Positions 2,444 to 45,672 of a DNA stretch of 60,081 nt are shown here, piece after piece; position 1 is the first letter of the stretch; every line of letters begins with the position of its first letter. The notes beneath the pieces are model-generated. The model searched no databases, was not told where the DNA came from, and saw only the letters and a program-made list of their open reading frames with translations. This DNA comes from Candidatus Collierbacteria bacterium RIFCSPLOWO2_01_FULL_50_23. GTDB lineage: Bacteria; Patescibacteriota; Microgenomatia; UBA1400; MFAQ01. The translations under genes were made by a program, and so were the position numbers. The stretch is taken from NCBI GenBank assembly GCA_001774555.1, contig MFAI01000018.1:873-60953 (forward strand), written 5' to 3'.

Positions 2444-2483
2444 CCCGCCTGCAAAAGCTGTAGCTTTAGCTACTGCGGGCAGG
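2444..2483 (-). repeat. palindromic repeat element, copy A (intergenic, upstream of the T4SS-like cluster)
   Basis: Plus strand cccgcctgca-aaagctgtagctttagctac-tgcgggcagg. Its reverse complement is CCTGCCCGCA...TGCAGGCGGG, identical at both 10-nt termini to the copies at 17426 and 45460. Inner hairpin gtagc/gctac. Confidence 0.75.
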
Positions 2484-4380: not shown

Positions 4381-7300
4381 ATGGCATTACCTTTTTTCAA
4401 CAAAAAATCAGCTGCGGCTCCTACCCCCCCCGCAGGCCACAATCCGCTTCCCACTTCTCCCGCCGGACAGATAGCTTCACCTATCCCCACCGGCCCTCTG
4501 ACCAACCACCCAACACCCTCCGGCAACTCAACTCCTGCTGAAATTACCAACATCCAAGATACTATCGCTCCTCCGGCAATTGAAGTCGACTTTTCAAGTC
4601 TGAAGATCGGCGACACTTATCTTCGCACTCTTTTTATCGTCGGTTATCCCCGCTATGTTTCCGCTAATTGGCTTTCTCCCCTCATCAACTTCAATCACTC
4701 CCTTGATATTGCTATGTACATTTATCCTACCGAAAGCAAGGGCACTCTCGACCAACTTCGTCGCAAAATTGCTGAAATGGAAGCTGAGATTAGCTCCGAT
4801 ATCCAACGGGGCCGTCTCCCTCAAGCGGCTACCCAGGCGGCTCTCGAAGACGCCAAATCACTACAAGAACAGCTCGTCAAAGGCATCGAGCGTTTCTTCC
4901 AATTCTCGCTTTACGTCACTATCGCCGCCGAGTCCATCAAGGAGTTAAATACCATCACCCAGCAAGTTCAAAGCACCCTCGGTTCGCTCCTCATCGTCGC
5001 CAAGGTCGCTTCCCTTTCCATGGAAGACGCTTTCAAGACCACGCTCCCTTACTGCAAGGACAAGCTCCTGATTACAAGAAATATGGATACCACTGCTCTC
5101 TCAACGACCTTTCCCTTTACTTCATCCGAGCTTTCCGATAACAAAGGCATTCTCTATGGCATCAACGCCCACAACGAATCTCTGGTTATTTTTGACCGTT
5201 TTTCACTAGAGAATGCGAATATGTTGGTTCTCGCAACTAGCGGAGCCGGGAAGTCTCTGGCCTATAGTGATGAAGTGTTTATCAAGAATGCGGCAAACGA
5301 GGTCAAGAGAGCCAAAATCGGTCCCCTAGTCGAAAAAATAATCCAACGAAAAGGTTCAATCAAACTGGAAAAAGATATTGAAGGTAATCTCTGTCCGGGA
5401 ATAAAGGTTTATTCGTTTGACCCAAAAACACTCAAGGGAGGTTGGTCTGCCGTTACGGTCGCCGCCCGCAAGAAATCACCCAAGAATCTATATCACTTCA
5501 CCACCAAGTCCGGCCGAGAAATTACCACCACTGCTGATCACAATCTTCTTACCCTCAAAGACACCAAAATCAATGTCTCAAAAGGGTCAGCGGCCAAAGT
5601 CGGCGATTATCTCCCCCTTCCCCGCCAGATTCTTGAATCAACCTCCTCTACTTCCAAACATTCGCTAGAATACTATTCTTTGCTTGGCTACTATACAGCA
5701 GAGGGTTGTCATACAACTAATAGTGTTCGTATTTCAGCCATGAATCCACAAATTATCAATCATGTTAAAAACCTCTGCGGTAAGCTGGATTATAATTTCT
5801 CTCTGTTATCAAACCATGGTCAAATTAAGGGGGTTTCGATCAGATCAAAATCTCTGATCAGGAAACTAAAGCTTGAAAAATGTGCCGGTAAAGCGGGAAC
5901 GAAGAGAGTACCCTCAATTCTATTTGCCGAAAAAAACGAGCTGAAAGCCGCCTACTTACGCTCATATTTTAGTGGTGATGGTTGCGTCGAACAACACGAA
6001 GTTACTTGCGTTACCAAATCAAAGGGTCTAGCCTCCGATCTCTCCTACCTCCTCTATAACTTTGGCATCATTGTTCGAATCCACCCCAAATTCAAAAAAG
6101 CCACCAACACTAAACACATTGGCGACATCTACTGCCAACTCACAATATCCGGCCAAGACAACCTCAAGAAATTTGCCAAACAAATTGGTTTCAACCTTGA
6201 TTACAAAAACCAGAAGCTCCAAAAACTACTCGGAAAAATTGGCAATCCCAATGCTGATATCATCCCAAACCTCCAAAAGTCCTTCAAAAAAATCTATTCG
6301 ACCCTCTATAACTCAAACAACAAGGCTCCCCAACGGCTGATTAACATCAAGGACGGTTTCTATAATCCCACTCCAAAGGAGCTCCTCAAGGTAATTGATG
6401 AGGTCAAACCGAGACTAAAAGAAATTGAGAACGAAGCTGAAAATATCTTTACTTTGCTCAAACTTCCTCAATGGCAAGACCTGGCTCTGGAAGGATCAGT
6501 CAAAAAATCACTAAACAAAAAGCTTTGGCAAAACCTTGGTCAAACCTGGCGCATTATGAAAAAACGCCAGGTCGCCCCCCAAATAAATACGGTTCTAAAA
6601 GTCTATGAAACTCTCCATGGGCCAGTATTTACAAAAGAACAAATATATGGAGCCATTAACCACTCTTTCAAGACCCTTGGTCTATCGCTTGGCGATTTTG
6701 ACAATACACTCTGGAACGCCGTCACCCAAACCAATGCCAACACTATTTATGATCGTGTCTACAAGGCAAGCCAGTATCTTTTAAGACAATATCTAAAATT
6801 GCAGGATAAAATTAAAAAAATAGAGGACATTCTTTCAGACATCTCCACACTTGCTAATTCAGACCTCTTCTGGGATCCAATCGAGAAAATCGAAAAAATC
6901 AAATCCCGTCATCCCCACGTATATGATCTGACCGTCAATAATCAGGTCTTTCTGACTGGTCATGGTGGAATGTTCGTTCACAACTCCTATTTTGTGAAGT
7001 TGGAGATCATGCGCGCATTGATGTTTGATACCGAAGCGATCGTCCTCGACCCCGAGAACGAGTACGAAATGATTGCAAAGGCTATTGGCGGTAATTACAT
7101 CAATTTTTCATCTTCTTCCCAGAATAAAGTTAATCCTTTCCAGATCGCCAACGTCAGCGACAGCACCGAGGATGAGATGGGCTACAAGTATCTCTTCCTC
7201 CAATCGCTCCTGAAGATTATGTTGGGTCAGATGTCTCCAACCGAGGATGCGACCCTAAATCGCGCCTTGGTCCTCACCTACCGCCAGAAAGGTATCACCG

Positions 7301-7995
7301 AAGATCCCTCAACCCATACCCTCGAGGCTCCCCGTATGGAAGATCTCTATCGCTCCCTCATTGGCATGGAAGATGAAAGCGCCAAAAATCTTTCCGCCCG
7401 CCTCGAAAAATATGTCATGGGTGCCGTCAAAGGCATCTTCGACCAACAAAGCAACATCTCCCTCGATAGCAAGGTCACCGTCTTCACCCTCCGCGAGCTC
7501 GCCGATGAGATCCGCCCTATTGTCATGTTCATCATTCTTGATTACGTCTGGACCAAGGTCAGAAAAGATCTCAAACGCCGGCTCCTCATTGTCGACGAGG
7601 CTTGGTATCTCATGCGCTACGAAGACTCAGCCAAGATCCTCCAGGGTTTTGTCAAGCGCGCCCGCAAGTATTATCTCGGCGTCACCGTCATTTCCCAAAA
7701 CGCCGACGATTTTCTGACATCTCCATATGGCAAAGCTATCGTCACCAATAGCGCCCTGCAGATGCTCTTCAAACAGTCTCCTGCTGCTGTTGATCAGGTG
7801 GCCGACGTCTTCTATCTTTCCCAGGGCGAAAAACACATGCTTCTCTCTGCCGGCGTCGGCGAGGGACTTTTCTTTGCCGGTCAAAACCACGTCGCTGTTC
7901 GAGTCATTTCTTCCCCCGATGAGCACGCACTCGCGACCAGCAAACCCACCGAAGTCATCGAACGTCAGAGACAGGCTTCCCCTGATAAACTATAG
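4381..7995 (+). CDS. virB4: VirB4/TrsE-like type IV secretion ATPase, interrupted by an intein (about 627 aa after splicing)
   Basis: Walker A is LATSGAGK|S...|SYFVKLE, split by the insert. Walker B is RRLLIVDEAWYL. The C-terminal FVKRARKYYLGVTVISQN is typical of VirB4/TraC ATPases. Confidence 0.85.
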   Translation: MALPFFNKKSAAAPTPPAGHNPLPTSPAGQIASPIPTGPLTNHPTPSGNSTPAEITNIQDTIAPPAIEVDFSSLKIGDTYLRTLFIVGYPRYVSANWLSPLINFNHSLDIAMYIYPTESKGTLDQLRRKIAEMEAEISSDIQRGRLPQAATQAALEDAKSLQEQLVKGIERFFQFSLYVTIAAESIKELNTITQQVQSTLGSLLIVAKVASLSMEDAFKTTLPYCKDKLLITRNMDTTALSTTFPFTSSELSDNKGILYGINAHNESLVIFDRFSLENANMLVLATSGAGKSLAYSDEVFIKNAANEVKRAKIGPLVEKIIQRKGSIKLEKDIEGNLCPGIKVYSFDPKTLKGGWSAVTVAARKKSPKNLYHFTTKSGREITTTADHNLLTLKDTKINVSKGSAAKVGDYLPLPRQILESTSSTSKHSLEYYSLLGYYTAEGCHTTNSVRISAMNPQIINHVKNLCGKLDYNFSLLSNHGQIKGVSIRSKSLIRKLKLEKCAGKAGTKRVPSILFAEKNELKAAYLRSYFSGDGCVEQHEVTCVTKSKGLASDLSYLLYNFGIIVRIHPKFKKATNTKHIGDIYCQLTISGQDNLKKFAKQIGFNLDYKNQKLQKLLGKIGNPNADIIPNLQKSFKKIYSTLYNSNNKAPQRLINIKDGFYNPTPKELLKVIDEVKPRLKEIENEAENIFTLLKLPQWQDLALEGSVKKSLNKKLWQNLGQTWRIMKKRQVAPQINTVLKVYETLHGPVFTKEQIYGAINHSFKTLGLSLGDFDNTLWNAVTQTNANTIYDRVYKASQYLLRQYLKLQDKIKKIEDILSDISTLANSDLFWDPIEKIEKIKSRHPHVYDLTVNNQVFLTGHGGMFVHNSYFVKLEIMRALMFDTEAIVLDPENEYEMIAKAIGGNYINFSSSSQNKVNPFQIANVSDSTEDEMGYKYLFLQSLLKIMLGQMSPTEDATLNRALVLTYRQKGITEDPSTHTLEAPRMEDLYRSLIGMEDESAKNLSARLEKYVMGAVKGIFDQQSNISLDSKVTVFTLRELADEIRPIVMFIILDYVWTKVRKDLKRRLLIVDEAWYLMRYEDSAKILQGFVKRARKYYLGVTVISQNADDFLTSPYGKAIVTNSALQMLFKQSPAAVDQVADVFYLSQGEKHMLLSAGVGEGLFFAGQNHVAVRVISSPDEHALATSKPTEVIERQRQASPDKL
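5254..6984 (+). mobile_element. large intein (577 aa) with LAGLIDADG homing-endonuclease domain, inserted in the Walker A P-loop
   Basis: Block A SLAYSDEVFI (Ser1), block B TTTADHNLLTL, LAGLIDADG motifs LLGYYTAEGC and LRSYFSGDGC, block F HVYDLTVNNQVFLTG, block G GMFVHN followed by +1 Ser. Removing it restores GAGKSYFVKLE. Confidence 0.85.
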
Positions 7996-12875: not shown

Positions 12876-13985
12876 CTAGTTCTGCGTTCTCACCGGCATG
12901 ATCACGTGCAGGAATTCACTTTTTGGGATCCGAAATACCGCCGGCTTTAACTCCCCTTCGGTTTCCATCGTCACTTTTTCACCTTTCACTACTCCCAGGT
13001 AATCCAATAAGTAACGGGCATTAAAAGCAATTTTAACCTCTTCTCCCTCCACCTCCGCTTCCAAAGAAGACTGACTCCCTCCAACCTGATCACTTTGAGC
13101 CGTCACGCTGATCCCATCCTGCTTGACCAGCAGCTTCACCACGTTTGCACTATCACGGGCAAACAAAGACGCTCGCTTCACCGCCTCCACCAAAGCTTCT
13201 TTCTCCAAAGTCACCGTTATTTTCTTTTCCGTCGGGATCACCTTACTGTAAGGCGGGAACTCCCCCGCGATCAACCGACTACTCATCTCCAGATCGTCGG
13301 CCGAAAAGACTACCTGCTGCTTATCTTTATCAAACTCGACAATCACCGACTTCATTGAGGGCGTGAGAACCCGCGTTAGCTCCATCAGCGCTCTCACCGG
13401 CAGGACAAACTTCTCGCCGGCTTCCACGCCCCCTGAGACCCCATTTTTCAGAGTATCTACCCCCACCCGATAACCGTCGGTTGCGACCAAGGTTGCTTTC
13501 TTCTCCGAAAAAACCCACAGTACTCCGGCCAGGATCGGTCGGGAGTCATCTTTGGCTGCCGCAATGCCGACCCTCTCCACTTTCTCCTGCAATTCTTCGA
13601 TTGATAGTTCCAGTCCCTTGCCGCGGGCTTTGGGCAAACTGGGAAACTCCTCGCTTCCCTGCCCGACCACCTCCGCTTTTACTTTTTCGCCCTTGATTAT
13701 CAAAGTTTGTTTTTCGCCCGTTAGTTCGATTACACCCACCGGCAGTGTCGCCACCAGATCAGAAAACAACTTTGCCGGAATCGCCATCTCACCTTCCTCC
13801 TCCACTTTTGCCCGCACTTTGACTTTGAATGATAGTTCCAAGTCTGTCGCTGAAATGACGAGCCCCTCCTTGCCCGCCTTAAGAAGAACCGTTGAGAGAA
13901 TCGGTAACTGCACCCGCGTGGATACTCCCCTCATCGCGATCGACAATCCTTTCTTTAAGTTTTCCGTCAAAATACTGACTTTCAT
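12876..13985 (-). CDS. dnaN: DNA polymerase III beta sliding clamp
   Basis: 369 aa. MKVSILTENLKKGLSIAMRGVSTRVQLPILSTVLLKAGKEGLVISATDLELS is a typical DnaN N-terminus. Located downstream of dnaA. Confidence 0.9.
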   Translation of the reverse strand: MKVSILTENLKKGLSIAMRGVSTRVQLPILSTVLLKAGKEGLVISATDLELSFKVKVRAKVEEEGEMAIPAKLFSDLVATLPVGVIELTGEKQTLIIKGEKVKAEVVGQGSEEFPSLPKARGKGLELSIEELQEKVERVGIAAAKDDSRPILAGVLWVFSEKKATLVATDGYRVGVDTLKNGVSGGVEAGEKFVLPVRALMELTRVLTPSMKSVIVEFDKDKQQVVFSADDLEMSSRLIAGEFPPYSKVIPTEKKITVTLEKEALVEAVKRASLFARDSANVVKLLVKQDGISVTAQSDQVGGSQSSLEAEVEGEEVKIAFNARYLLDYLGVVKGEKVTMETEGELKPAVFRIPKSEFLHVIMPVRTQN

Positions 13986-14248
13986 GCTCTTTCTTCTATT
14001 ACTTTATTCTTAATATTTAGTACTTAGTATTAATAGAGTCTGTAGATATGTTAACAACACGGCTGGTTCTTGCCTACCACCAATGTGTTTAAGTGATTAT
14101 TAATTGATTCTTCCATCTTTTATTACTGATTTCTGGGTTCCGGGCTTTCCAATTTTGTGCATTTCTAGACTATTATGTGGATTCTCTTGTGAATAATTAT
14201 TGCTAACTTTTCTGTTTCTTTGCTTTTTGTCCCCATTAATTAACATTT
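13986..14248. other. candidate oriC part 2 (dnaA-dnaN spacer: AT-rich unwinding region plus DnaA-box-like 9-mers)
   Basis: Very AT-rich stretch at 13990-14040. 9-mers tgtgtttaa (14084-14092, 7/9), tgtggattc (14176-14184, 7/9) and tgtgaataa (14188-14196, 8/9) compared with TGTGGATAA. Confidence 0.45.
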
Positions 14249-15631
14249 TTACAAATACATATCCTGACGCAGTTTCATGATCTTTTCGCGGACAGTCTGG
14301 TTTGATTCAAATTCACGTTTCATTTTTTCTTCCGCATGCATGATCGTCGTATGGTCGCGGCCGCCCATCAGCTCCCCTATCTTCGTCAGCTGCAGGCCGA
14401 GCTCGTCACGTAGTAGATAAATCGCCACGTGCCTTGCCTCGACCAGTTCGGCCTTTCGGCTTTTACCTACAATATCCTTATTCTTAAAGTCAAAGTGTTT
14501 TGCTACCAGGCTGATCAACTGAATTGGTCTGAGTTTCCTATTTTCCCTTTCGTGTTTTACTCCGACGATTTTTTCAACTAAAGCTTGATTTACCGCTCCC
14601 CCGGATAGACTCGCCTCATTAATAATTCGGACAAAAACGCCCTCCAGCTCGCGGGCATTGGTCATGACGTTGCTCGCGATCAGATTGATGATCTCGGGAG
14701 AGGCGTTCGCATGTAGTTCCACTGCCTTTTGTCGCAGGATCGCCACCCTCATCTCATAATCAGGCAGACCAATGTCTACCGGCAGCCCCCCCAAGAATCG
14801 GGAAGTCAACCTCTCTTCCAATTTCTCGATCTCCTGCGGCTTCCGGTCGGAGGTCATAATGATCGGCACGCCGTTGGAATAAAGTTGATTGAATGTATGA
14901 AAGAACTCCTCCTGACTCGCCTCCTTACCGGAGAAGAACTGGACGTCGTCGATCAGCAAAGCCCCCACTTCCCGATATTGTTTCTTGAAGGCGCCAACCG
15001 TTTTGGACCGGAGTGAATTGACGAGGTCGTTGGTAAATTGTTCGCTGGTGACACAGGTTACTTTTTTAAAGCCTTTTGAAACTAGAGCATGGCCGACCGC
15101 CTGCATCAGGTGAGTCTTCCCTACCCCCACCCCACCCCAAATAAATAATGGGTTATAGCGCACTCCCGGGTACTCAACCACTGCCTTGGCTGCGGCATAG
15201 GCTAGGTTGTTCGACCGGCCAACTACAAAGGAATCAAAGTTAAAACGTGGGAAAAGTCCTTTCGTTTCCGGCTGTTCGATTTTTCTTTCCTCGAACAAAC
15301 CAGTCTTGATTGTCTCGTTTTCTTCTTGCCTGCCGCCGCCTTGTCCTTCCGTAACACGGGCGGAGGAGGATCCGACGACCAAGGCGAGCTCCACTCTCTT
15401 CCCCAGCTGTTTTTCCAGAGCTTGTTTGATCTGACCGTAGTAGCGGGCATCAATTTGCTGTAAATGGAAAGCAGATGGGCTGGCGACCTCGACGATGACT
15501 CTTTCACTATCTATTTCGGTGATACCCTTGATAAAGCAGGGTCGGATCCAGTAGCTAAAAGTCGCGTTGCTCATCGCCACTTCCAGGTCGCCACAAACAC
15601 TTGTCCAGATTGCCGCTTCGTTGACTTGCAT
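14249..15631 (-). CDS. dnaA: chromosomal replication initiator DnaA
   Basis: AAA+ motifs GGVGVGKTHLMQAVG and LLIDDVQF. C-terminal DNA-binding region RKAELVEARHVAIYLLRDE...GGRDHTTIMHA. Start moved to ATG 15631 (MQVNEAAIW) because DnaA-box-like sites lie inside the longer ORF-track version. Confidence 0.9.
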   Translation of the reverse strand: MQVNEAAIWTSVCGDLEVAMSNATFSYWIRPCFIKGITEIDSERVIVEVASPSAFHLQQIDARYYGQIKQALEKQLGKRVELALVVGSSSARVTEGQGGGRQEENETIKTGLFEERKIEQPETKGLFPRFNFDSFVVGRSNNLAYAAAKAVVEYPGVRYNPLFIWGGVGVGKTHLMQAVGHALVSKGFKKVTCVTSEQFTNDLVNSLRSKTVGAFKKQYREVGALLIDDVQFFSGKEASQEEFFHTFNQLYSNGVPIIMTSDRKPQEIEKLEERLTSRFLGGLPVDIGLPDYEMRVAILRQKAVELHANASPEIINLIASNVMTNARELEGVFVRIINEASLSGGAVNQALVEKIVGVKHERENRKLRPIQLISLVAKHFDFKNKDIVGKSRKAELVEARHVAIYLLRDELGLQLTKIGELMGGRDHTTIMHAEEKMKREFESNQTVREKIMKLRQDMYL

Positions 15632-15652
15632 AACTACCCACGGTTTTACAAG

Positions 15653-15672
15653 TTTTCCACATTTTGTCCACC
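15653..15672. promoter_or_regulatory. two adjacent DnaA-box-like sites upstream of dnaA (candidate oriC part 1 or autoregulation)
   Basis: ttttccaca (15653-15661, 8/9) and ttgtccacc (15664-15672, 7/9) compared with TTATCCACA. Their starts are 11 nt apart. Confidence 0.45.
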
Positions 15673-15803
15673 CCCAATATACCCGAACAAAAAGAAAGTT
15701 TTGCGCCGTCAAGTCTATTTAAAATCTGCGATTGGATACAAAAAACCATCTCCATTGCCATTATGCTTTACCTTATGCCGGTTCGCGTGTAAAATATGAG
15801 GTT

Positions 15804-15941
15804 GTGCCAAAGAGAACTTATCAACCAAAAAAACTAAAACGTGCCCGAAAACATGGCTTCCGTGAGCGCATGGCTACCAAAACCGGCCGTCAGGTCCTGC
15901 AGCGCCGTCGTCTTCGTGGTCGCCACAAACTCGCCGCTTAA
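15804..15941 (+). CDS. rpmH: 50S ribosomal protein L34
   Basis: GTG start preceded by GAGG. (M)[44 protein letters not shown] is the canonical L34 sequence. Confidence 0.9.
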
Positions 15942-15961
15942 GCCGGATAATAGCATCATCG

Positions 15962-16297
15962 ATGTTAAGTAAAGCGAATCGACTTAGTCTCAAAACTGAT
16001 CGCTTTCGGATTGAAAGTGAGGGCGGAACCCTTTCCTCTTCGTTCTTTACCTTTCTGATCGCCCCTCGTGCTGACATTTCATCTCCTATCAGACTTACCG
16101 TTCTCGTAAGTAAAAAATTCTTGGTCAAAAGCAGCGATCGCCACCAGCTCAAGCGTCGTCTGACCGAAATTCTCCGTCTTAATCTTAGTAAGCTCCCGGG
16201 AGGCATAGATGTAATCCTTATTCCCAAAAGGAGTCTCCTGGGCGCGACGACTGACCAGATCCTGGCTGATCTTATCAAGATACTAAATACTCACTAA
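15962..16297 (+). CDS. rnpA: RNase P protein component
   Basis: 111 aa basic protein directly after rpmH, starting MLSKANRLSLKTDRF. Confidence 0.8.
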   Translation: MLSKANRLSLKTDRFRIESEGGTLSSSFFTFLIAPRADISSPIRLTVLVSKKFLVKSSDRHQLKRRLTEILRLNLSKLPGGIDVILIPKRSLLGATTDQILADLIKILNTH

Positions 16298-16301
16298 GTC
16301 T

Positions 16302-16601
16302 ATGTTTTTTCGCCTCTACCGGCGCTTTATCTCCCCCATTCAACACATTTTTGGACGGTCTTTGTTTGGTTCGTACTATGCCTGCCTTTTTTCCCCGACT
16401 TGCTCGGTCTACTTTGCTACAGCGGTGCGTAAGTATGGTATCATTCACGGAGGTTTACTGGGTTTTCGACGGCTTCTTCGCTGTCATCCTTTCTCGCACT
16501 CACCTCACCTCGACCCCGTACCCCTGCCTGCAAAAGCTTCCCGCCTAGCGGGATGCGGGCAGGTGAAATATCAAATCATAAATATTAACTTGAAATGTTG
16601 A
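16302..16601 (+). CDS. yidD: membrane protein insertion efficiency factor YidD, with a repeat-encoded C-terminal tail
   Basis: YRRFISP...CLFSPTCSVYFATAVRKYGIIHGGLLGFRRLLRCHPFS...DPVP matches the YidD core. The last ~25 codons run through repeat copy B. Confidence 0.8.
   Translation: MFFRLYRRFISPIQHIFGRSLFGSYYACLFSPTCSVYFATAVRKYGIIHGGLLGFRRLLRCHPFSHSPHLDPVPLPAKASRLAGCGQVKYQIININLKC
16523..16563 (-). repeat. palindromic repeat element, copy B (forms the yidD C-terminal tail, just upstream of yidC)
   Basis: Plus strand cctgcctgca-aaagcttcccgcctagcggga-tgcgggcagg. It shares gcctgcaaaagct and tgcgggcagg with copy A but has a different inner hairpin (tcccgc/gcggga). Confidence 0.75.
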
Positions 16602-17338: not shown

Positions 17339-17839
17339 ATGGCGGAACTAAAAGCCCAAAAACTAGTCGAGAATGTTCTCTCTTTACTAGATCTCTCACC
17401 AGACCAATATACCGTTGAAATAGAACCTGCCCGCAGTGCTTCCAGCTCAGCTGATGCAGGCGGGGTCGAGGATGCAGTCAAAGTTGGCATTCAGCTTCCC
17501 GAAGACCAAACCGGCATTTACATCGGCCATCATGGCGAGGGTCTCACCGCTCTTCAGCTGCTTCTGTCTCTTATGATCAGCCAGCGCACCGGCGTCTGGT
17601 ACCGCGTCTCCGTCAATATCAATGACTATCAAGAACGCCGTGAGGACTCGCTCCGTCACCTAGCCGAAACCGCCGCCGAAAAAGCCTTGTCTCTGAACGA
17701 GGAAGTCGTTCTGGGAAATCTTTCCTCATATGAGCGACGAATCGTCCATCTACATTTGGAAAACCACCCCGATGTTACCACCGAATCTCGCGGCAACGCT
17801 CCCTTACGTCAGCTTCTCGTCATCCCCAAACTCAAATAG
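17339..17839 (+). CDS. jag: Jag/KhpB-like RNA-binding protein (KH + R3H)
   Basis: KH GxxG (IGHHGEGLTALQ) and an R3H-like C-terminus (SYERRIVHLHLENHPDVTTES). Located directly after yidC. Confidence 0.75.
   Translation: MAELKAQKLVENVLSLLDLSPDQYTVEIEPARSASSSADAGGVEDAVKVGIQLPEDQTGIYIGHHGEGLTALQLLLSLMISQRTGVWYRVSVNINDYQERREDSLRHLAETAAEKALSLNEEVVLGNLSSYERRIVHLHLENHPDVTTESRGNAPLRQLLVIPKLK
17426..17464 (+). repeat. palindromic repeat element, copy D (in frame inside jag)
   Basis: cctgcccgca-gtgcttccagctcagctga-tgcaggcggg with inner palindrome cagct/agctg. Translated as PARSASSSADAGG. Confidence 0.75.
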
Positions 17840-23452: not shown

Positions 23453-25654
23453 TTAAGCATCAGGCCAGGTGCTTGCAAGCAGTAACCCATCTTTGATCAT
23501 ATTCTGCCAGATCGCCTCAGTTACGAAAGGAGTGAAAGGATGAAGTAGCTTCAAGAAGACTACAAACCCCCGCCTCAGTGCGTCACTTGAGAGCTCACAC
23601 GACTTGTTGTCTTCAATTGCTTTATCGCAAAACCAGTGCCAGAACTCATTGTAAACGGTCTCGGCGGCGAGGCCGATCTTCAAATTCTCTAGCTGGTCGG
23701 TAACGTCATGAATAACCTGCTTTAACTTCTGGTTGAACTCCTCGTCCATGGGTCCTGGTTTTTGATCTTGATTTACGGGTTCCATTACATATCTGGCCGC
23801 ATTCCAGATTTTGTTGGCCAGATTTCTCATCCCGCGAACCTTGCTTTCTCCTACGTTGCTATCACTACCCGGAGTGGTGCTCATCACCAACGCCATCCGC
23901 AGAGCATCGGCGCCGTATTTTTCTACCAAATCCAATGGGTTAACCACGTTCCCGATACTCTTACTCATCTTCCGTCCCTGTTCGTCCCGAATCAGGCCAT
24001 GAAGATAAACCCACTTGAAGGGCGTTTCTCCGGTCAGGTAGATCGACAGGAGCATCATTCTCATTATCCAGATGGTCAGAATGTCATAACCGCTTTCAAT
24101 CACGTTAGTAGGGTAGTAGTAGGAAAGATCGTCCGGCCTGTTTGTCGCCAGAGTTGCGACCGGCCACTGCCCCGAGGAGAACCAGGTATCAAAAGTATCG
24201 GTTTCCTGCAGGTAGTTGTCTCCCGGTTTGGTCTTTGACACGACAAACTCGGCCCCGATCGCGGGTCTGAGCGTTTGTAAACCCGCTTCAATTTCGGCGA
24301 GGCTATGTCCGCGTTCCATCATTTCTATGAGTGTACCCCTCACGAACTCGGAGGCTGTATTCAAAAAGCCTACCTCCATCGTTGGGTTCGCGGTCACGTC
24401 ATACCAGACCGGGATCCGGATGCCCCAAACGATCTGCCGGCTAATATTCCAATCTCTAATGTTCGTCAGCCAGTCGAGTAATATCTTATCGCGCCCTGCT
24501 CCCAACACGACAGTTTCGCCGGAATCTAGCGCTTTAATTGCTTTCGCGGCCAAAGTCTTGGTCTTTATGAAGAACTGAGCCAGGGGTAAGGGCTCAATGA
24601 TACTGTGACAGCGATAACAGGTGCCGACGTTATGAATATGTTCTTTGGTCTGTTCAACCAACCCAAGTGCGTCTAATTTCTCGATCACGGCTGTTCGTGC
24701 CGGCTCGACCTTCATTCCGGCAAACTCTCCGGCCGCCCCCGCCATCCGACCGGAAAAATCGATCGCCTGGATCAAAGGCAGGTTGTGACGCATTCCGGTT
24801 TCGTAGTCTGCCATGTCATGGGCTGGGGTAATTTTAACCGCGCCCGTACCGAACTCTTTTTCTACCATTGGGTCAGCGATGATCGGGATCAGCCTATTGG
24901 CCAGTGGTAAAATCACCATTTTGCCAACCAAGTGCTTGTAGCGCCCGTCCTCCGGATTCACTGCCACCGCCGTATCGCCGGGCATTGTTTCGGGTCGGGT
25001 TGTCGCGACTACGATCTCCCCGCCATCGGCCAGAGGATACTTGATGAAATACAATTTTCCGTTTTTTTCTTCGTGAATTACTTCTAGTTCGGAATAACTG
25101 GTGCCACACTTGACGCAGTAGTTCACCAAGCGCTCACCTCGGTAAACCAGGCCGTCACGGTGTAGCTTTTCGAAAGTCGTCAAGACGAACCCGACAATAT
25201 CACCGTCCAAAGTGAACTTGAACCGTCCCCAGTCCGCGCTTGCTCCAAGTCTCTTCATTTGTTGGACGGATACCCCGGAAAATTCGTTAACGTAATCAGA
25301 AATCATTTGATAAAGTGTTTTCCGGTCAAAGTCGTACCGGCTCTTGCCTTGTTTTGCCAATTTCTTTTCAAATACGAACTGGGTTTCGATGCCGGCGTGG
25401 TCTGTTCCCGGTAGCCAGAGAGTGGCGTCACCCTTCATTCGGTGGTAGCGGATTAGGATATCTTCGATGGTCACGAACATCGCGTGTCCAACGTGGAGCG
25501 GATCGCTGGCATTTGGCGGCGGCATGATAAGAGTGAACGGCCGTTTCCCGTCAGCCTTTGCGCGAGATGCCTCCGGTGCCGCAAAAGCACCACTCTTTTC
25601 CCAAGCGGAAATTATCTTATCCTCGTGCAGTTTGTGATCGTAGTTCTTATCCAT
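23453..25654 (-). CDS. valS: valyl-tRNA synthetase (short form without the long C-terminal coiled coil)
   Basis: PPPNASDPLHVGHA (HIGH) and RKMSKSIGN (KMSKS), plus CP1 editing-domain length. 733 aa. Confidence 0.9.
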   Translation of the reverse strand: MDKNYDHKLHEDKIISAWEKSGAFAAPEASRAKADGKRPFTLIMPPPNASDPLHVGHAMFVTIEDILIRYHRMKGDATLWLPGTDHAGIETQFVFEKKLAKQGKSRYDFDRKTLYQMISDYVNEFSGVSVQQMKRLGASADWGRFKFTLDGDIVGFVLTTFEKLHRDGLVYRGERLVNYCVKCGTSYSELEVIHEEKNGKLYFIKYPLADGGEIVVATTRPETMPGDTAVAVNPEDGRYKHLVGKMVILPLANRLIPIIADPMVEKEFGTGAVKITPAHDMADYETGMRHNLPLIQAIDFSGRMAGAAGEFAGMKVEPARTAVIEKLDALGLVEQTKEHIHNVGTCYRCHSIIEPLPLAQFFIKTKTLAAKAIKALDSGETVVLGAGRDKILLDWLTNIRDWNISRQIVWGIRIPVWYDVTANPTMEVGFLNTASEFVRGTLIEMMERGHSLAEIEAGLQTLRPAIGAEFVVSKTKPGDNYLQETDTFDTWFSSGQWPVATLATNRPDDLSYYYPTNVIESGYDILTIWIMRMMLLSIYLTGETPFKWVYLHGLIRDEQGRKMSKSIGNVVNPLDLVEKYGADALRMALVMSTTPGSDSNVGESKVRGMRNLANKIWNAARYVMEPVNQDQKPGPMDEEFNQKLKQVIHDVTDQLENLKIGLAAETVYNEFWHWFCDKAIEDNKSCELSSDALRRGFVVFLKLLHPFTPFVTEAIWQNMIKDGLLLASTWPDA

Positions 25655-27176: not shown

Positions 27177-27208
27177 CACAAAACCTCCCCGCCCTTCGGG
27201 GCGGGGAG
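27177..27208 (-). terminator. GC-rich hairpin with UUCG/CGAA tetraloop between convergent genes
   Basis: Stem cctccccgccc / gggcggggagg (27183-27208) with loop ttcg. On the minus strand it is followed by TTTGTG, so it probably terminates the VanW-family gene and may act in both directions. Confidence 0.5.
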
Positions 27209-27217
27209 GCCCACTCC

Positions 27218-31402: not shown

Positions 31403-32161
31403 ATGCAGCCTTCGCTTTTTATTACCTATATTTATCAGCCATTCTTTAATATTCTTGTTTTTATCTACTGGGCCCTCGGCCAAGCCGGTATTTCTGATAT
31501 GGGCATCGCCGTTATCATTTTCGCCGTCGTTGTCCAGATCATCCTGCTACCCCTAAACCTCTCCGCTGACCGCTCCGAGAAGGAAAAGGCAGCTATCGCC
31601 GCCAAAATCAAAGAGATCGAGCGGAAACATCGTTTTGATCCGGTTAAACTGCGCTCGGAAAGCAAGGAAGTTATGCGTAGCAACCCCGGTGCTGTGGTTG
31701 GCGAAACTATCAACATCATAATCCAGGTCATCATCGTTCTCATGCTCTATCGCATCTTCAAAACCGGGCTTGAGGGCGAGGATCTCCACCTGCTCTATTC
31801 CTTCATGCCCGAAATCAAGACCCCGATCAATTTGGTTTTCTTGGGTAAATTTGATCTTTCCCAAACCAATGGCACGCTCAACCTGATCCAATCCCTGTTG
31901 ATTTTTGCCATCGAGGCCCTTCACATGCTTTTCTCGCCCGATGCCACCAGTCGGCGTCAGTTCCTCCAACTGGCTATCTTCTTGCCCATTACCGCCTTTC
32001 TCGTCTTCATCTTTCTCCCCGCCGGCAAGAAGCTTTTCATTATCACCTCGCTTCTCTTCTCTATCTTTGTTTTGTTGATTAAGCAAGCCCTATTTTGGTA
32101 TCATACTCTTACAGGAGAGATCTCACCTCATTTAGAAGAGCAAAAGACCCCTACCTCCTAA
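31403..32161 (+). CDS. second YidC/Oxa1-family insertase paralogue
   Basis: IYQPFFNILVFIY...MGIAVIIFAVVVQIILLPLNLSADRSEKEKAAIAAKIKEIERKH...MRSNPGAVVGETINIIIQVIIVLMLYRIF follows the YidC core pattern. Confidence 0.65.
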   Translation: MQPSLFITYIYQPFFNILVFIYWALGQAGISDMGIAVIIFAVVVQIILLPLNLSADRSEKEKAAIAAKIKEIERKHRFDPVKLRSESKEVMRSNPGAVVGETINIIIQVIIVLMLYRIFKTGLEGEDLHLLYSFMPEIKTPINLVFLGKFDLSQTNGTLNLIQSLLIFAIEALHMLFSPDATSRRQFLQLAIFLPITAFLVFIFLPAGKKLFIITSLLFSIFVLLIKQALFWYHTLTGEISPHLEEQKTPTS

Positions 32162-44625: not shown

Positions 44626-45672
44626 GTGCTCAACCCTGACATTCTAAGAGGCAAAAACGTCCTCCTTCGTGCCGATCTGGACGTGCCTTTGGAGCAGGGG
44701 AAGGTGGTCAATGATTTCCGTCTCCGGGCTCTCCTGCCCACGCTCAGGCTGTGCCTCACCAACGCCCAAAGTACCCTTATCACCGGCCACCTTGGTCGTC
44801 CCGAGGCCAAATCGGAGGAATTTGGCCTCAAACCGGTACGAGAGTGGCTGGAAAAAGCGCTACATCGCTCTATTTACTTTATTGATTCGGGTTTTTCTCC
44901 AGGGGAGTGGGCAAGGGGAGAGTTCCCCCTAGCCATGCTCGACAACTTGCGCTTCGATCCGGGTGAGTTAAACAATAGTAGGGAATTCGCAAGGGAGTTA
45001 ACTCAAGGCAGCGATATTTATGTTTATGAGGCTTTTGCCAGTTACAACAGTGCCGCCAGCCTCCGAATAATACCCGAAATTATCCCCACCTATACCGGAC
45101 TTCAGTTCGACCGAGAGGTGGAGGAGTTGGAAAAAATCGTGAAAAGTCCTGTCGCACCAAGCCTTTTAGTCCTCTCCGGTGCCAAAGAGGACAAGGGAGA
45201 GTATGTGGATAACCTTGTGGATAAGTTTGACGAGATCTTGGTTGGAGGCAAACTAGCCAGCCACATTCAGCCTCAAACAAACGTCCTTCCCGCCAGCCTC
45301 ACCCCCGATGGTCTGGATATTGACGACGCCTCTGCCCGCCTTTTTTCCGAGAAAATTAAGGCTGCTAAGTCAGTAGTCATTAGCGGACCTTTGGGTAGGT
45401 TCGAGGATGGAATTCACATTGTGGGAACCAAAGCTATTTTTTCTGCAGCCGTCCACTCCCCTGCCCGCAATGCTTCGCATAGCGATGCAGGCGGGCCTGC
45501 CCGGGTCATCATCGGCGGCGGCGACACCCTGGCTGCCATTCCCGCCCTCGGCTTTGCCTACTCTGATTTTGATTTTGTCAGTACCGGGGGTGGCGCCATG
45601 CTTGAGTTCTTGGCTACGGGCACCCACCCCCTCCTTACCATTATCAGGAATCAAACCCATGCCGGTTCTTGA
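44626..45672 (+). CDS. pgk: phosphoglycerate kinase (short form)
   Basis: GTG start. GKNVLLRADLDVP...IIGGGDTLAA...STGGGAMLEFL. Confidence 0.85.
   Translation: MLNPDILRGKNVLLRADLDVPLEQGKVVNDFRLRALLPTLRLCLTNAQSTLITGHLGRPEAKSEEFGLKPVREWLEKALHRSIYFIDSGFSPGEWARGEFPLAMLDNLRFDPGELNNSREFARELTQGSDIYVYEAFASYNSAASLRIIPEIIPTYTGLQFDREVEELEKIVKSPVAPSLLVLSGAKEDKGEYVDNLVDKFDEILVGGKLASHIQPQTNVLPASLTPDGLDIDDASARLFSEKIKAAKSVVISGPLGRFEDGIHIVGTKAIFSAAVHSPARNASHSDAGGPARVIIGGGDTLAAIPALGFAYSDFDFVSTGGGAMLEFLATGTHPLLTIIRNQTHAGS
45460..45495 (+). repeat. palindromic repeat element, copy C (in frame inside pgk)
   Basis: cctgcccgca-atgcttcgcatagcga-tgcaggcggg, translated as PARNASHSDAGG. A second cctgcccg follows immediately at 45496-45503. 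Confidence 0.75.

Follow-up and report, generated by a model that had tools for sequence, protein, structure and literature searches.

Four palindromic repeats in a 60-kb stretch of a Candidatus Collierbacteria genome (contig MFAI01000018.1; hereafter the window) belong to a seemingly undescribed family, whose members are probably miniature palindromic insertion elements of 32–43 nt (mode 36): trans-mobilised DNA, which we infer to be selfish or, at most, neutral. Copies are insertions that interrupt otherwise contiguous sequence; close relatives differ by the gain or loss of copies, and tandem duplication and nesting occur. The element is under constraint at the level of the nucleic acid. In open reading frames (ORFs), copies are tolerated only when in-frame and sense.

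Four copies in the window

Both strands of the window were scanned for the pattern CCTGCCCGCA-N16-21-TGCAGGCRGG. A fuzzy regular-expression search and a covariance model run with its filters off each return four family copies, and no further ones. Their coordinates and orientations had been given in a preliminary description of this DNA, and they hold on reading the sequence, in the pattern search and in the covariance model alike:

Copy A: 2444..2483, minus strand (canonical orientation), 40 nt, CCCGCCTGCAAAAGCTGTAGCTTTAGCTACTGCGGGCAGG; intergenic.
Copy B: 16523..16563, minus strand, 41 nt, CCTGCCTGCAAAAGCTTCCCGCCTAGCGGGATGCGGGCAGG; its terminus on the canonical strand is TGCAGGCAGG, with one base changed.
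Copy C: 17426..17464, plus strand, 39 nt, CCTGCCCGCAGTGCTTCCAGCTCAGCTGATGCAGGCGGG; phase 0 in a Jag/KhpB-like gene, encodes PARSASSSADAGG.
Copy D: 45460..45495, plus strand, 36 nt, CCTGCCCGCAATGCTTCGCATAGCGATGCAGGCGGG; phase 0 in pgk, encodes PARNASHSDAGG, residues 279-290.
Host gene yidD (PF01809): 16302..16601, plus strand; 3' end lengthened by copy B.
Host gene jag/khpB-like: 17339..17839, plus strand; weak KH_KhpA-B hit, R3H.
Host gene pgk (PF00162): 44626..45672, plus strand.
Direct repeat CCTGCCCG: 45496..45503, plus strand; right after copy D, an 8-nt direct repeat of the element's 5' end.

Copies A, C and D match both terminal 10-mers at 10/10 positions and copy B is one base off, as first reported. 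Over both strands (2 x 60 kb), the random expectation for each exact 10-mer is ~0.1 occurrences, so four paired recurrences are not due to chance; on this point, too, the preliminary description was right. The covariance model gives 63.4 bits to copy D and 42.2 to copy C on the plus strand, and 31.4 to copy A and 27.2 to copy B on the minus strand (12.7 for B on the plus strand). These strand scores agree with the initial grouping of A and B in one orientation and C and D in the other. Weak model matches at 24738-24782 and 27188-27205 are not family members.

Copy A sits in a 139-nt divergent intergenic region, between a PIN/antitoxin-like pair and a PrgI-like gene. It ends 23 nt upstream of the ATG at 2507 of that gene, which is the first of a cluster resembling a type IV secretion system (T4SS); copy A had correctly been placed in the 5' region of this operon. 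The copy is unchanged in four other assemblies of the same organism. The remaining copies had been said to lie inside conserved genes, and the three genes are indeed yidD, jag and pgk, but copy B is a C-terminal read-through and not an internal insertion. Copies C and D both begin at codon position 1. Among 21 contigs that carry the same Jag protein, ten assemblies (from ENA, JGI, NCBI and Logan) were read, and copies B and C are identical in 10/10. Identical versions of the window's proteins are found on Rifle aquifer metagenome contigs and in GCA_001776225.1. Among named sequences, the nearest to the window's PGK is that of Candidatus Collierbacteria, a member of the Patescibacteria/CPR.

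Empty sites in close relatives

Empty sites were verified at three loci only: jag, pgk and yidD. At jag, 7/7 relatives (80–86% YidC identity, stretch included) lack exactly the 39 nt of copy C. The comparison yields a clean gap, with zero flanking bases duplicated and no repeats.

At pgk, most Collierbacteria homologues read ...SS-PARVIIGGGDT, with the insert absent. The DNA of one such empty site (L132) is TCC followed directly by CCCGCCCGA, where the window has the copy D 36-mer before CCTGCCCGG; exactly 36 nt are inserted, with no duplication. Loci L130 and L131 encode a PGK otherwise identical to that of the window, but with two abutting 36-nt copies in tandem. The 8-nt repeat that follows copy D belongs to pgk itself (Pro-Ala-Arg codons), and the relatives have it at their empty site as CCCGCCCG or CCTGCCCG. 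It offers a slippage route to the one-copy/two-copy polymorphism.

At yidD, the closest relatives (L147-L151 and L156) stop straight after ...DPVP and have no element. Copy B occupies the stop-codon position, and YidD reads through into a tail of 25 additional residues that ends at 16601. More distant relatives (L152 and L153) carry a different 40-mer, of the copy A subtype, at the same site. Copy A and this 40-mer belong to one subfamily, and their sole difference is a compensated AT/TA swap in an inner stem.

Elsewhere in the family, copies are nested in opposite orientation, at L104:259-330 and L030:3657-3740. The nesting at L104 is three levels deep and uses the same internal position each time. 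The preliminary description favoured a hairpin element, mobile or recombinogenic, over a protein motif, and this view finds support in the empty sites, in the conservation of nucleotides and in covariation that changes the encoded residues.

Other small inserts were seen in pgk. In other Collierbacteria (L133:1372-2400 and L134:1501-2538), an unrelated 30-nt hairpin (CCTGCCCGCCGAAGCCTTGGCGTAAGAAGG, CCTGTCCGCCGTAGCCTTGGCGAAGGCGGG) lies exactly at the site of copy D, and PGK homologues hold further short lineage-specific inserts (SPSELVERGAES, LAAGGTEAKS and AGLPAGRQ). The hairpin and these inserts may represent further small palindromic insertion families. A perfect 10-bp palindrome (GAGGCCAAAT...ATTTGGCCTC) is found within pgk of the window at 44803-44829, where other Collierbacteria PGKs hold extra residues.

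Constraint on base pairing

What is conserved in the element? Within the range of 32–43 nt, 36 nt is the commonest length (n=63), followed by 39 (n=21), 32 (n=17) and 33 nt (n=9). The outer stem, CCTGCCCGCA...TGCAGGCGGG, is an imperfect one of 10 bp, in keeping with the description of the termini as imperfect inverted repeats. A T.G opposition at 3.34 and a C.A opposition at 7.30 are always present. The ends thus complement each other inexactly, which makes the two strands distinguishable.

The interior was analysed for pairing in 42 distinct 36-mers, with 500 shuffles and slid controls. It consists of two overlapping, mutually exclusive hairpins of 4–6 bp. Hairpin 1 joins positions 11-14 with 18-21 (pair 11-21: AU 16, UA 10, GC 7), and hairpin 2 joins positions 16-19 with 23-26 (pair 16-26: AU 17, UA 10, GC 3, GU 5). 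Each scores above 500/500 shuffles and all slid controls, so the covariation that had been suggested as a check is found in both inner hairpins. The self-complementary cores of the preliminary description are present as described; what did not stand is the single hairpin per copy, since there are two overlapping alternatives. One continuous long hairpin was rejected as the conserved fold, for the pairs 11-26 and 16-21 fail to hold.

Read on the reverse strand, the order is again terminus, 5 nt, 4-bp hairpin and terminus. With the two-hairpin layout, both DNA strands therefore fold into the same shape, and copies A and B resemble copies C and D in which the terminal T and C have changed places. 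In the usual reading frame, changes at the covarying positions are non-synonymous (N/S/I, S/T/A and D/V/A). Because the covarying bases alter the encoded residues, the constraint acts on base pairing and not on the peptide.

Copies inside genes

Stop-free spans of at least 200 codons hold 49/130 copies (~38%). The length is divisible by three in 46/49 of these ORF copies, and in 34/34 of those in low-GC loci, as compared with 25/50 non-coding copies. The sense strand is used by 40/49, and phases 0 and 2, in which the consensus sense strand reads without a stop codon, account for 38/49. Could a bias of insertion explain the orientation? Intergenic copies between co-directional genes show a same:opposite ratio of just 18:9, so most of the orientation bias in ORFs is best explained by selection on a translated product. 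Copies in ORFs appear to be translated, typically as PARNASHSDAGG, with LPAMLRIAMQAG as the alternative peptide; across the insert of copy D, the PGK peptide is NASHSDAGGPAR.

The genes that contain copies encode ATP synthase gamma, three Mur ligases, several tRNA synthetases, ribonucleotide reductase, SecA and TsaD, as well as SMC, LepA, S1, GrpE and UvrC. In a Saccharibacteria metagenome-assembled genome (MAG; CAYJQS010000014.1, L027:676-5047), S9, RpoA, S11 and IF1 have one in-frame copy each within 4 kb, placed in tails, in the inter-domain linker of RpoA or in a loop. A fifth, diverged copy is seen at 2089-2124 of the same locus.

For the PGK of the window we inspected an AlphaFold model (mean predicted local distance difference test score, pLDDT, 83.6). 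The insert is modelled as a low-confidence coil, with pLDDT <50 at 284-289, between the helix 266-276 and the strand 293-297 that leads to the GGGD motif; it is predicted to be a disordered loop.

Among 20 non-coding loci, no copy is inserted into a structured RNA gene; copies are merely near tRNAs. At L078:7425-7500 (Curtissbacteria), a copy splits an apparent acceptor and D-arm, and a gene for a GIY-YIG nuclease follows. We rejected this case as a tRNA D-loop insertion: just a 5' tRNA fragment is present, and the rest of the tRNA is missing.

Size and host range of the family

A scan of one genome per species for CCTGCCCGCA-N12-26-TGCAGGCRGG, whose counts are lower bounds, returned at least 119 loci. 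About 14 of these resemble chance hits in GC-rich genomes, which leaves at least ~105 with a homologous interior. Many further copies are thus present in relatives and in other phyla, where the preliminary description had advised looking for them. By label, the ~105 loci fall as follows:

Patescibacteria (Nomura-, Pacei-, Sacchari-, Berkel-, Moran- and Falkowbacteria and many Microgenomates): at least 55 loci.
Verrucomicrobiota, Kiritimatiellia and Lentisphaerae: at least 29 loci.
Bins labelled Gammaproteobacteria or Pseudomonadales: at least 15 loci.
Other or unlabelled: at least 6 loci.

One copy lies in a single-cell genome of a verrucomicrobiotal organism (L097). The loci labelled Gammaproteobacteria or Pseudomonadales are AT-rich, and one of them (L049:4016-5896) encodes a short alanyl-tRNA synthetase of 627 residues; both features make the gammaproteobacterial labels doubtful, and these may be wrong. 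In IMG/VR, 12 matching stretches come from 11 contigs, and 10 putative viral contigs have a family-like interior. One IMG/VR contig carries phage portal and Mu-F genes, and one contig of 30 kb carries four copies. Cultured phage and plasmid collections gave no real match to the element.

The interior had been thought to differ in every copy. This proved wrong: interiors form widely shared subfamilies, and copy D is the commonest 36-mer of the family. That exact sequence occurs in Daviesbacteria, Nomurabacteria, Staskawiczbacteria, Kiritimatiellia, Verrucomicrobia and one viral contig.

Has the family been described before? With Rfam at gathering thresholds, the whole window yields one tRNA and no family on the element. 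Around copy D, permissive E-values return CRISPR-DR28 at 12.8 bits (cut-off 35) and COG2908 RNA at 10.8 bits (cut-off 58.7), both with E above 1. A full-text literature search for both 10-mers gave matches that look like incidental oligonucleotides in unrelated papers. A search of the literature on palindromic elements in the candidate phyla radiation (CPR) or Verrucomicrobia found no description of the element, an absence that is no proof of novelty. The preliminary description had likewise not recognised it as a known family.

In an Ignavibacteria MAG (L083:1755-1892) we noted 3.2 tandem units of 43 nt with CCTGCCCGCA...TGCAGGCGGG termini and a non-palindromic interior, which may be a distant relative or a coincidence.

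Other features of the window

Between two convergent genes, at 27184-27209, lies a GC-rich hairpin with a perfect 11-bp stem and a TTCG loop (CCTCCCCGCCC TTCG GGGCGGGGAGG). It looks like a bidirectional terminator and stands outside the element family. At 12876-16297, the minus strand carries dnaN and dnaA, and rpmH, rnpA, yidD, yidC and jag follow on the plus strand. Such a gene order usually surrounds a replication origin; GC skew is negative throughout the window, with no switch. A second gene of the YidC/60KD_IMP family (252 aa) is found at 31403-32161; 15 kb separate it from the yidC that adjoins yidD. In the T4SS-like cluster, the VirB4/TraC-like ATPase (4381-7995) holds an intein with a LAGLIDADG endonuclease domain, judged by the Pfam annotation that other assemblies give for the identical gene.

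How does the element spread?

The reading that we consider probable, a miniature insertion element mobilised in trans, would work as follows. The element would propagate as DNA, a single-stranded hairpin or a cruciform being its most likely form, and this structure would be recognised by a factor supplied in trans and encoded away from the copies. Selection would then filter the insertions, and the survivors in genes would be those with a length divisible by three, in sense orientation and in a stop-free frame. Translation of such copies would add a short, disordered and polar loop (PARNASHSDAGG or LPAMLRIAMQAG) to tails, linkers and surface loops, even of essential proteins. The outcome in the window would be one intergenic copy, a C-terminal extension of YidD, a 13-residue loop in Jag and a 12-residue loop in PGK. 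We regard as doubtful a bolder version: that the 36-nt hairpin is the substrate of a horizontally transferred, perhaps phage-borne insertion machinery that makes no target duplication. It would then be the smallest mobile DNA unit known, and the machinery would be at work in Patescibacteria and the Planctomycetes-Verrucomicrobia-Chlamydiae (PVC) group, steadily adding loops to essential proteins.

Several observations weigh against mobilisation in trans. The target has no strong motif: A is found at -1 in only 50% of copies (63/126, with T in 8) and is disfavoured at +1. No target-site duplication is present at the verified empty sites of jag and pgk. The Pfam lists for ~47 kb of annotated window include no transposase or nuclease, and nothing is enriched among the 25 commonest families listed for the 148 ORFs within 3 kb of copies, which are housekeeping genes; a RAYT/IS200-like gene, proposed at the outset as something to look for, was not found in this DNA. 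The support is presence and absence among relatives, not observed movement, and slippage between the 8-nt repeats explains the tandem duplication in pgk without transposition. Identical 36-mers across phyla are hard to account for by a pure parasite, unless a vector or a machinery is shared. Most hosts are metagenome bins with many unverified labels, and the size of the family (at least 119 loci) is a lower bound only. Finally, the search pattern fixed the termini, so the outer stem lies outside the covariation test.

Do the flanks of the copies betray a mechanism? Direct repeats of at least 9 nt flank 9.5% of copies versus 0.5% of random sites. At a length of exactly 7 nt the excess forms a sharp peak: 9.5% of copies, as compared with 0.17% of random sites, show at least 6/7 matches. 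The 7-nt repeat flanks only ~10% of copies and is usually imperfect; at L101, L109, L113 and L119 the flanks of ORF copies are heptamer-periodic, for example TTAGAAG TTAGAAG / element / TAAGAAG TTAGAAA. A true 7-nt duplication would break the reading frame, and the 7-nt signal is thus left unexplained. Copies lie in the loop of a larger flanking hairpin in 8/126 cases, with ~1.5 expected, too few for a general preference for such loops. Control of orientation by the direction of replication is unlikely, as copies B and C are oppositely oriented within 0.9 kb.

The main rival for the mode of spread is an enzyme-free route, which we hold to be conceivable and rather unlikely. It concerns the same insertional element, spread by replication slippage, by template switching or by short-patch gene conversion among palindromes and seeded by local repeats or microhomology, as has been discussed for mitochondrial GC clusters. 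Such a route would fit the lack of a transposase near copies, both in the annotation of the window and among the 148 neighbouring ORFs, and the verified empty sites without target-site duplication. It would also fit the pgk site, which shares 8 nt of identity with the element's 5' end and was hit repeatedly (one copy, two copies, and the 30-nt hairpin of L133 and L134). The same holds for the yidD stop-codon site, with different variants in different lineages, and for the enrichment of flanking repeats of 9 nt or more together with the 7-nt peak. However, homology of at least 4 nt between flank and terminus is present in just 2/127 copies, the pgk site being among such cases; general microhomology between flanks and termini is thereby rejected, and most insertions would have had no primer for a template switch. 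The insertion in jag is clean and has no repeats. The enzyme-free route also leaves unexplained why identical 36-mers occur in distant phyla, and why the T.G and C.A oppositions that distinguish the strands are conserved.

An RNA hairpin or a host DNA site is less likely. Selection on the host might maintain copies as functional RNA modules on transcripts (mRNA stabilisers, processing sites or attenuators), an explanation that we find improbable and that was an alternative in the preliminary description. Compensatory changes keep the two inner stems, and predicted folds are stable, with z-scores of -1.1 to -4.4; the sense-strand excess extends to intergenic copies (18:9), and some copies lie a few tens of nucleotides from tRNA genes. 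Against this, the architecture is the same on both strands, so the pairing constraint is equally a property of DNA. Copies occupy arbitrary places in unrelated essential ORFs, differing between close relatives; A and B run antisense to the genes around them; no Rfam family matches; and the strong divisible-by-three rule indicates that copies in ORFs are simply translated.

We think it very improbable that copies are DNA sites for a host or an invader, such as a competence DNA-uptake signal or the binding or cleavage site of a conserved protein. The sequence is extremely constant across phyla, the stem mismatches are conserved and asymmetric, and the element occurs on viral contigs. The uptake sequences of Neisseria and Haemophilus are also found inside genes, with frame preferences, and in this they resemble the element. 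Known uptake sequences, on the other hand, arise by point mutation and recombination, whereas here we see clean insertions of the 36-nt type. The density is modest, with four copies in the 60 kb of the window and ~1 extra copy per 85 kb elsewhere, and no candidate binding protein is known.

A conserved peptide motif (the phase-0 peptide PAR..S.AGG recurs in many proteins), chance recurrence or an artefact of sequencing or assembly is already refuted: the same DNA is used in two frames (0 and +1), on the antisense strand and in non-coding DNA, with variable positions that swap amino acids and preserve base pairs; the exact 10-mers are too rare by expectation; and an artefact would not agree across ten assemblies from four sources, nor yield the length rule inside ORFs. 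A motif conserved at the level of amino acids had been named as the finding that would overturn the hairpin element, and what is conserved is the nucleotides.

What would follow if trans-mobilised insertion elements hold up? They would stand beside Rickettsia palindromic elements and mitochondrial GC clusters as their bacterial counterpart, of only ~36 nt, with an identical sequence common to very distant phyla of largely uncultured organisms. One selfish cassette would repeatedly have altered core proteins of ultra-small bacteria, among them RNA polymerase alpha, ribosomal proteins, IF1, PGK and SecA, which bears on annotation, alignment and phylogenomics of the host groups. The element might serve as a marker of recent DNA exchange between these groups and their viruses. 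No known transposition pathway explains the combination of missing transposase and target duplication, covarying overlapping hairpins and strand symmetry.

Comparison with known systems

How does the element compare with small palindromic repeats described before? The preliminary description likened its behaviour to that of repetitive extragenic palindromes (REPs) or Rickettsia palindromic elements (RPEs); the in-frame invasion of genes is indeed RPE-like, but the defining features of either family are missing. RPEs are reportedly palindromic repeats of ~100-150 nt, confined to Rickettsia, that lie in-frame in unrelated and often essential genes. Like them, the element consists of dispersed palindromes, in-frame in essential genes as well as in intergenic DNA, that would be translated as extra surface segments; it has no transposase of its own and occurs in small genomes of host-dependent bacteria. 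Unlike them, it measures 32–43 nt, has no sequence similarity to RPEs, and is found in Patescibacteria, PVC bacteria and viral contigs. Its length and its non-Rickettsia hosts exclude membership; the behaviour is alike, the family is not.

The GC clusters of yeast and fungal mitochondria (e.g. GC42) have a putative AG/TAG target duplication, are mostly intergenic and spread by an unresolved mechanism (PMC4478555). Shared with the element are GC-rich palindromes of 30-50 nt within genomes that are often AT-rich, their quick gain and loss from strain to strain, tandem, merged or nested units, stems conserved over loops, transfer between species and an occasional location in genes (PMC4478555). 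The element differs in that the verified sites have no duplication, 38% of copies are in ORFs, and the hosts are bacteria and phages, not organelles. We rejected membership in this group on the grounds of the bacterial and viral contigs and of ends without a di- or trinucleotide duplication. Related to GC clusters are the mitochondrial 'byp' elements of Magnusiomyces, which the ribosome skips; the divisible-by-three rule of the present element indicates plain translation instead.

REPs and REPINs are extragenic, usually have a GTAG or CGTC tag, are specific to species or genus, and are associated with a gene for a REP-associated tyrosine transposase (RAYT) that is itself flanked by REPs (PMC3116915, PMC3733652). 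Both they and the element are many-copy imperfect palindromes of 20-40 nt, with conserved stem imperfections and no autonomy (PMC3116915, PMC3733652). Both are also thought to act as single-stranded DNA hairpins. The element departs from REPs and REPINs in its heavy occupancy of genes, in the absence of an end tag and in a sequence common to several phyla. With 49/130 copies in long ORF spans and hosts such as pgk, rpoA, rpsI, rpsK, infA and secA, it is not extragenic; its ends, CCTG... and ...CGGG, carry no GTAG or CGTC tag. Neither the annotated ~47 kb of the window nor the 25 commonest Pfam families found in the 148 neighbouring ORFs include a RAYT (Y1 HUH).

The small dispersed repeats (SDRs) of Nostoc and other cyanobacteria are said to be mobile, hairpin-related repeats of 21-27 nt, mainly intergenic. 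They resemble the element in being very small, without a known enzyme, inserted in contiguous sequence and nested; they differ in sequence and hosts, and SDRs have reportedly not been seen across phyla.

Other classes were tried and rejected. A miniature transposable element with inverted repeats (MITE) would be far larger and have a fixed-length target-site duplication, which jag and pgk lack; to our knowledge there is no cognate insertion sequence. Copies are solitary or directly abutting, with no spacers, which excludes CRISPR repeats. Integron attC sites follow gene cassettes beside an integrase and have GTTRRRY/RYYYAAC cores, which the termini lack, and they measure 57-141 nt as opposed to 32–43 nt; the element, moreover, lies inside housekeeping genes. 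An Rfam RNA family is excluded by the lack of any score at the gathering threshold, and a protein motif or domain by conserved nucleotides that are used in frames 0 and +1, antisense and in non-coding DNA. Since the element fails the defining features of RPEs, GC clusters and REP/REPIN sequences, we file it as a separate, seemingly undescribed family, one that shares in-frame invasion of essential genes with RPEs, rapid gain and loss with GC clusters, and conserved stem imperfections with REPs.

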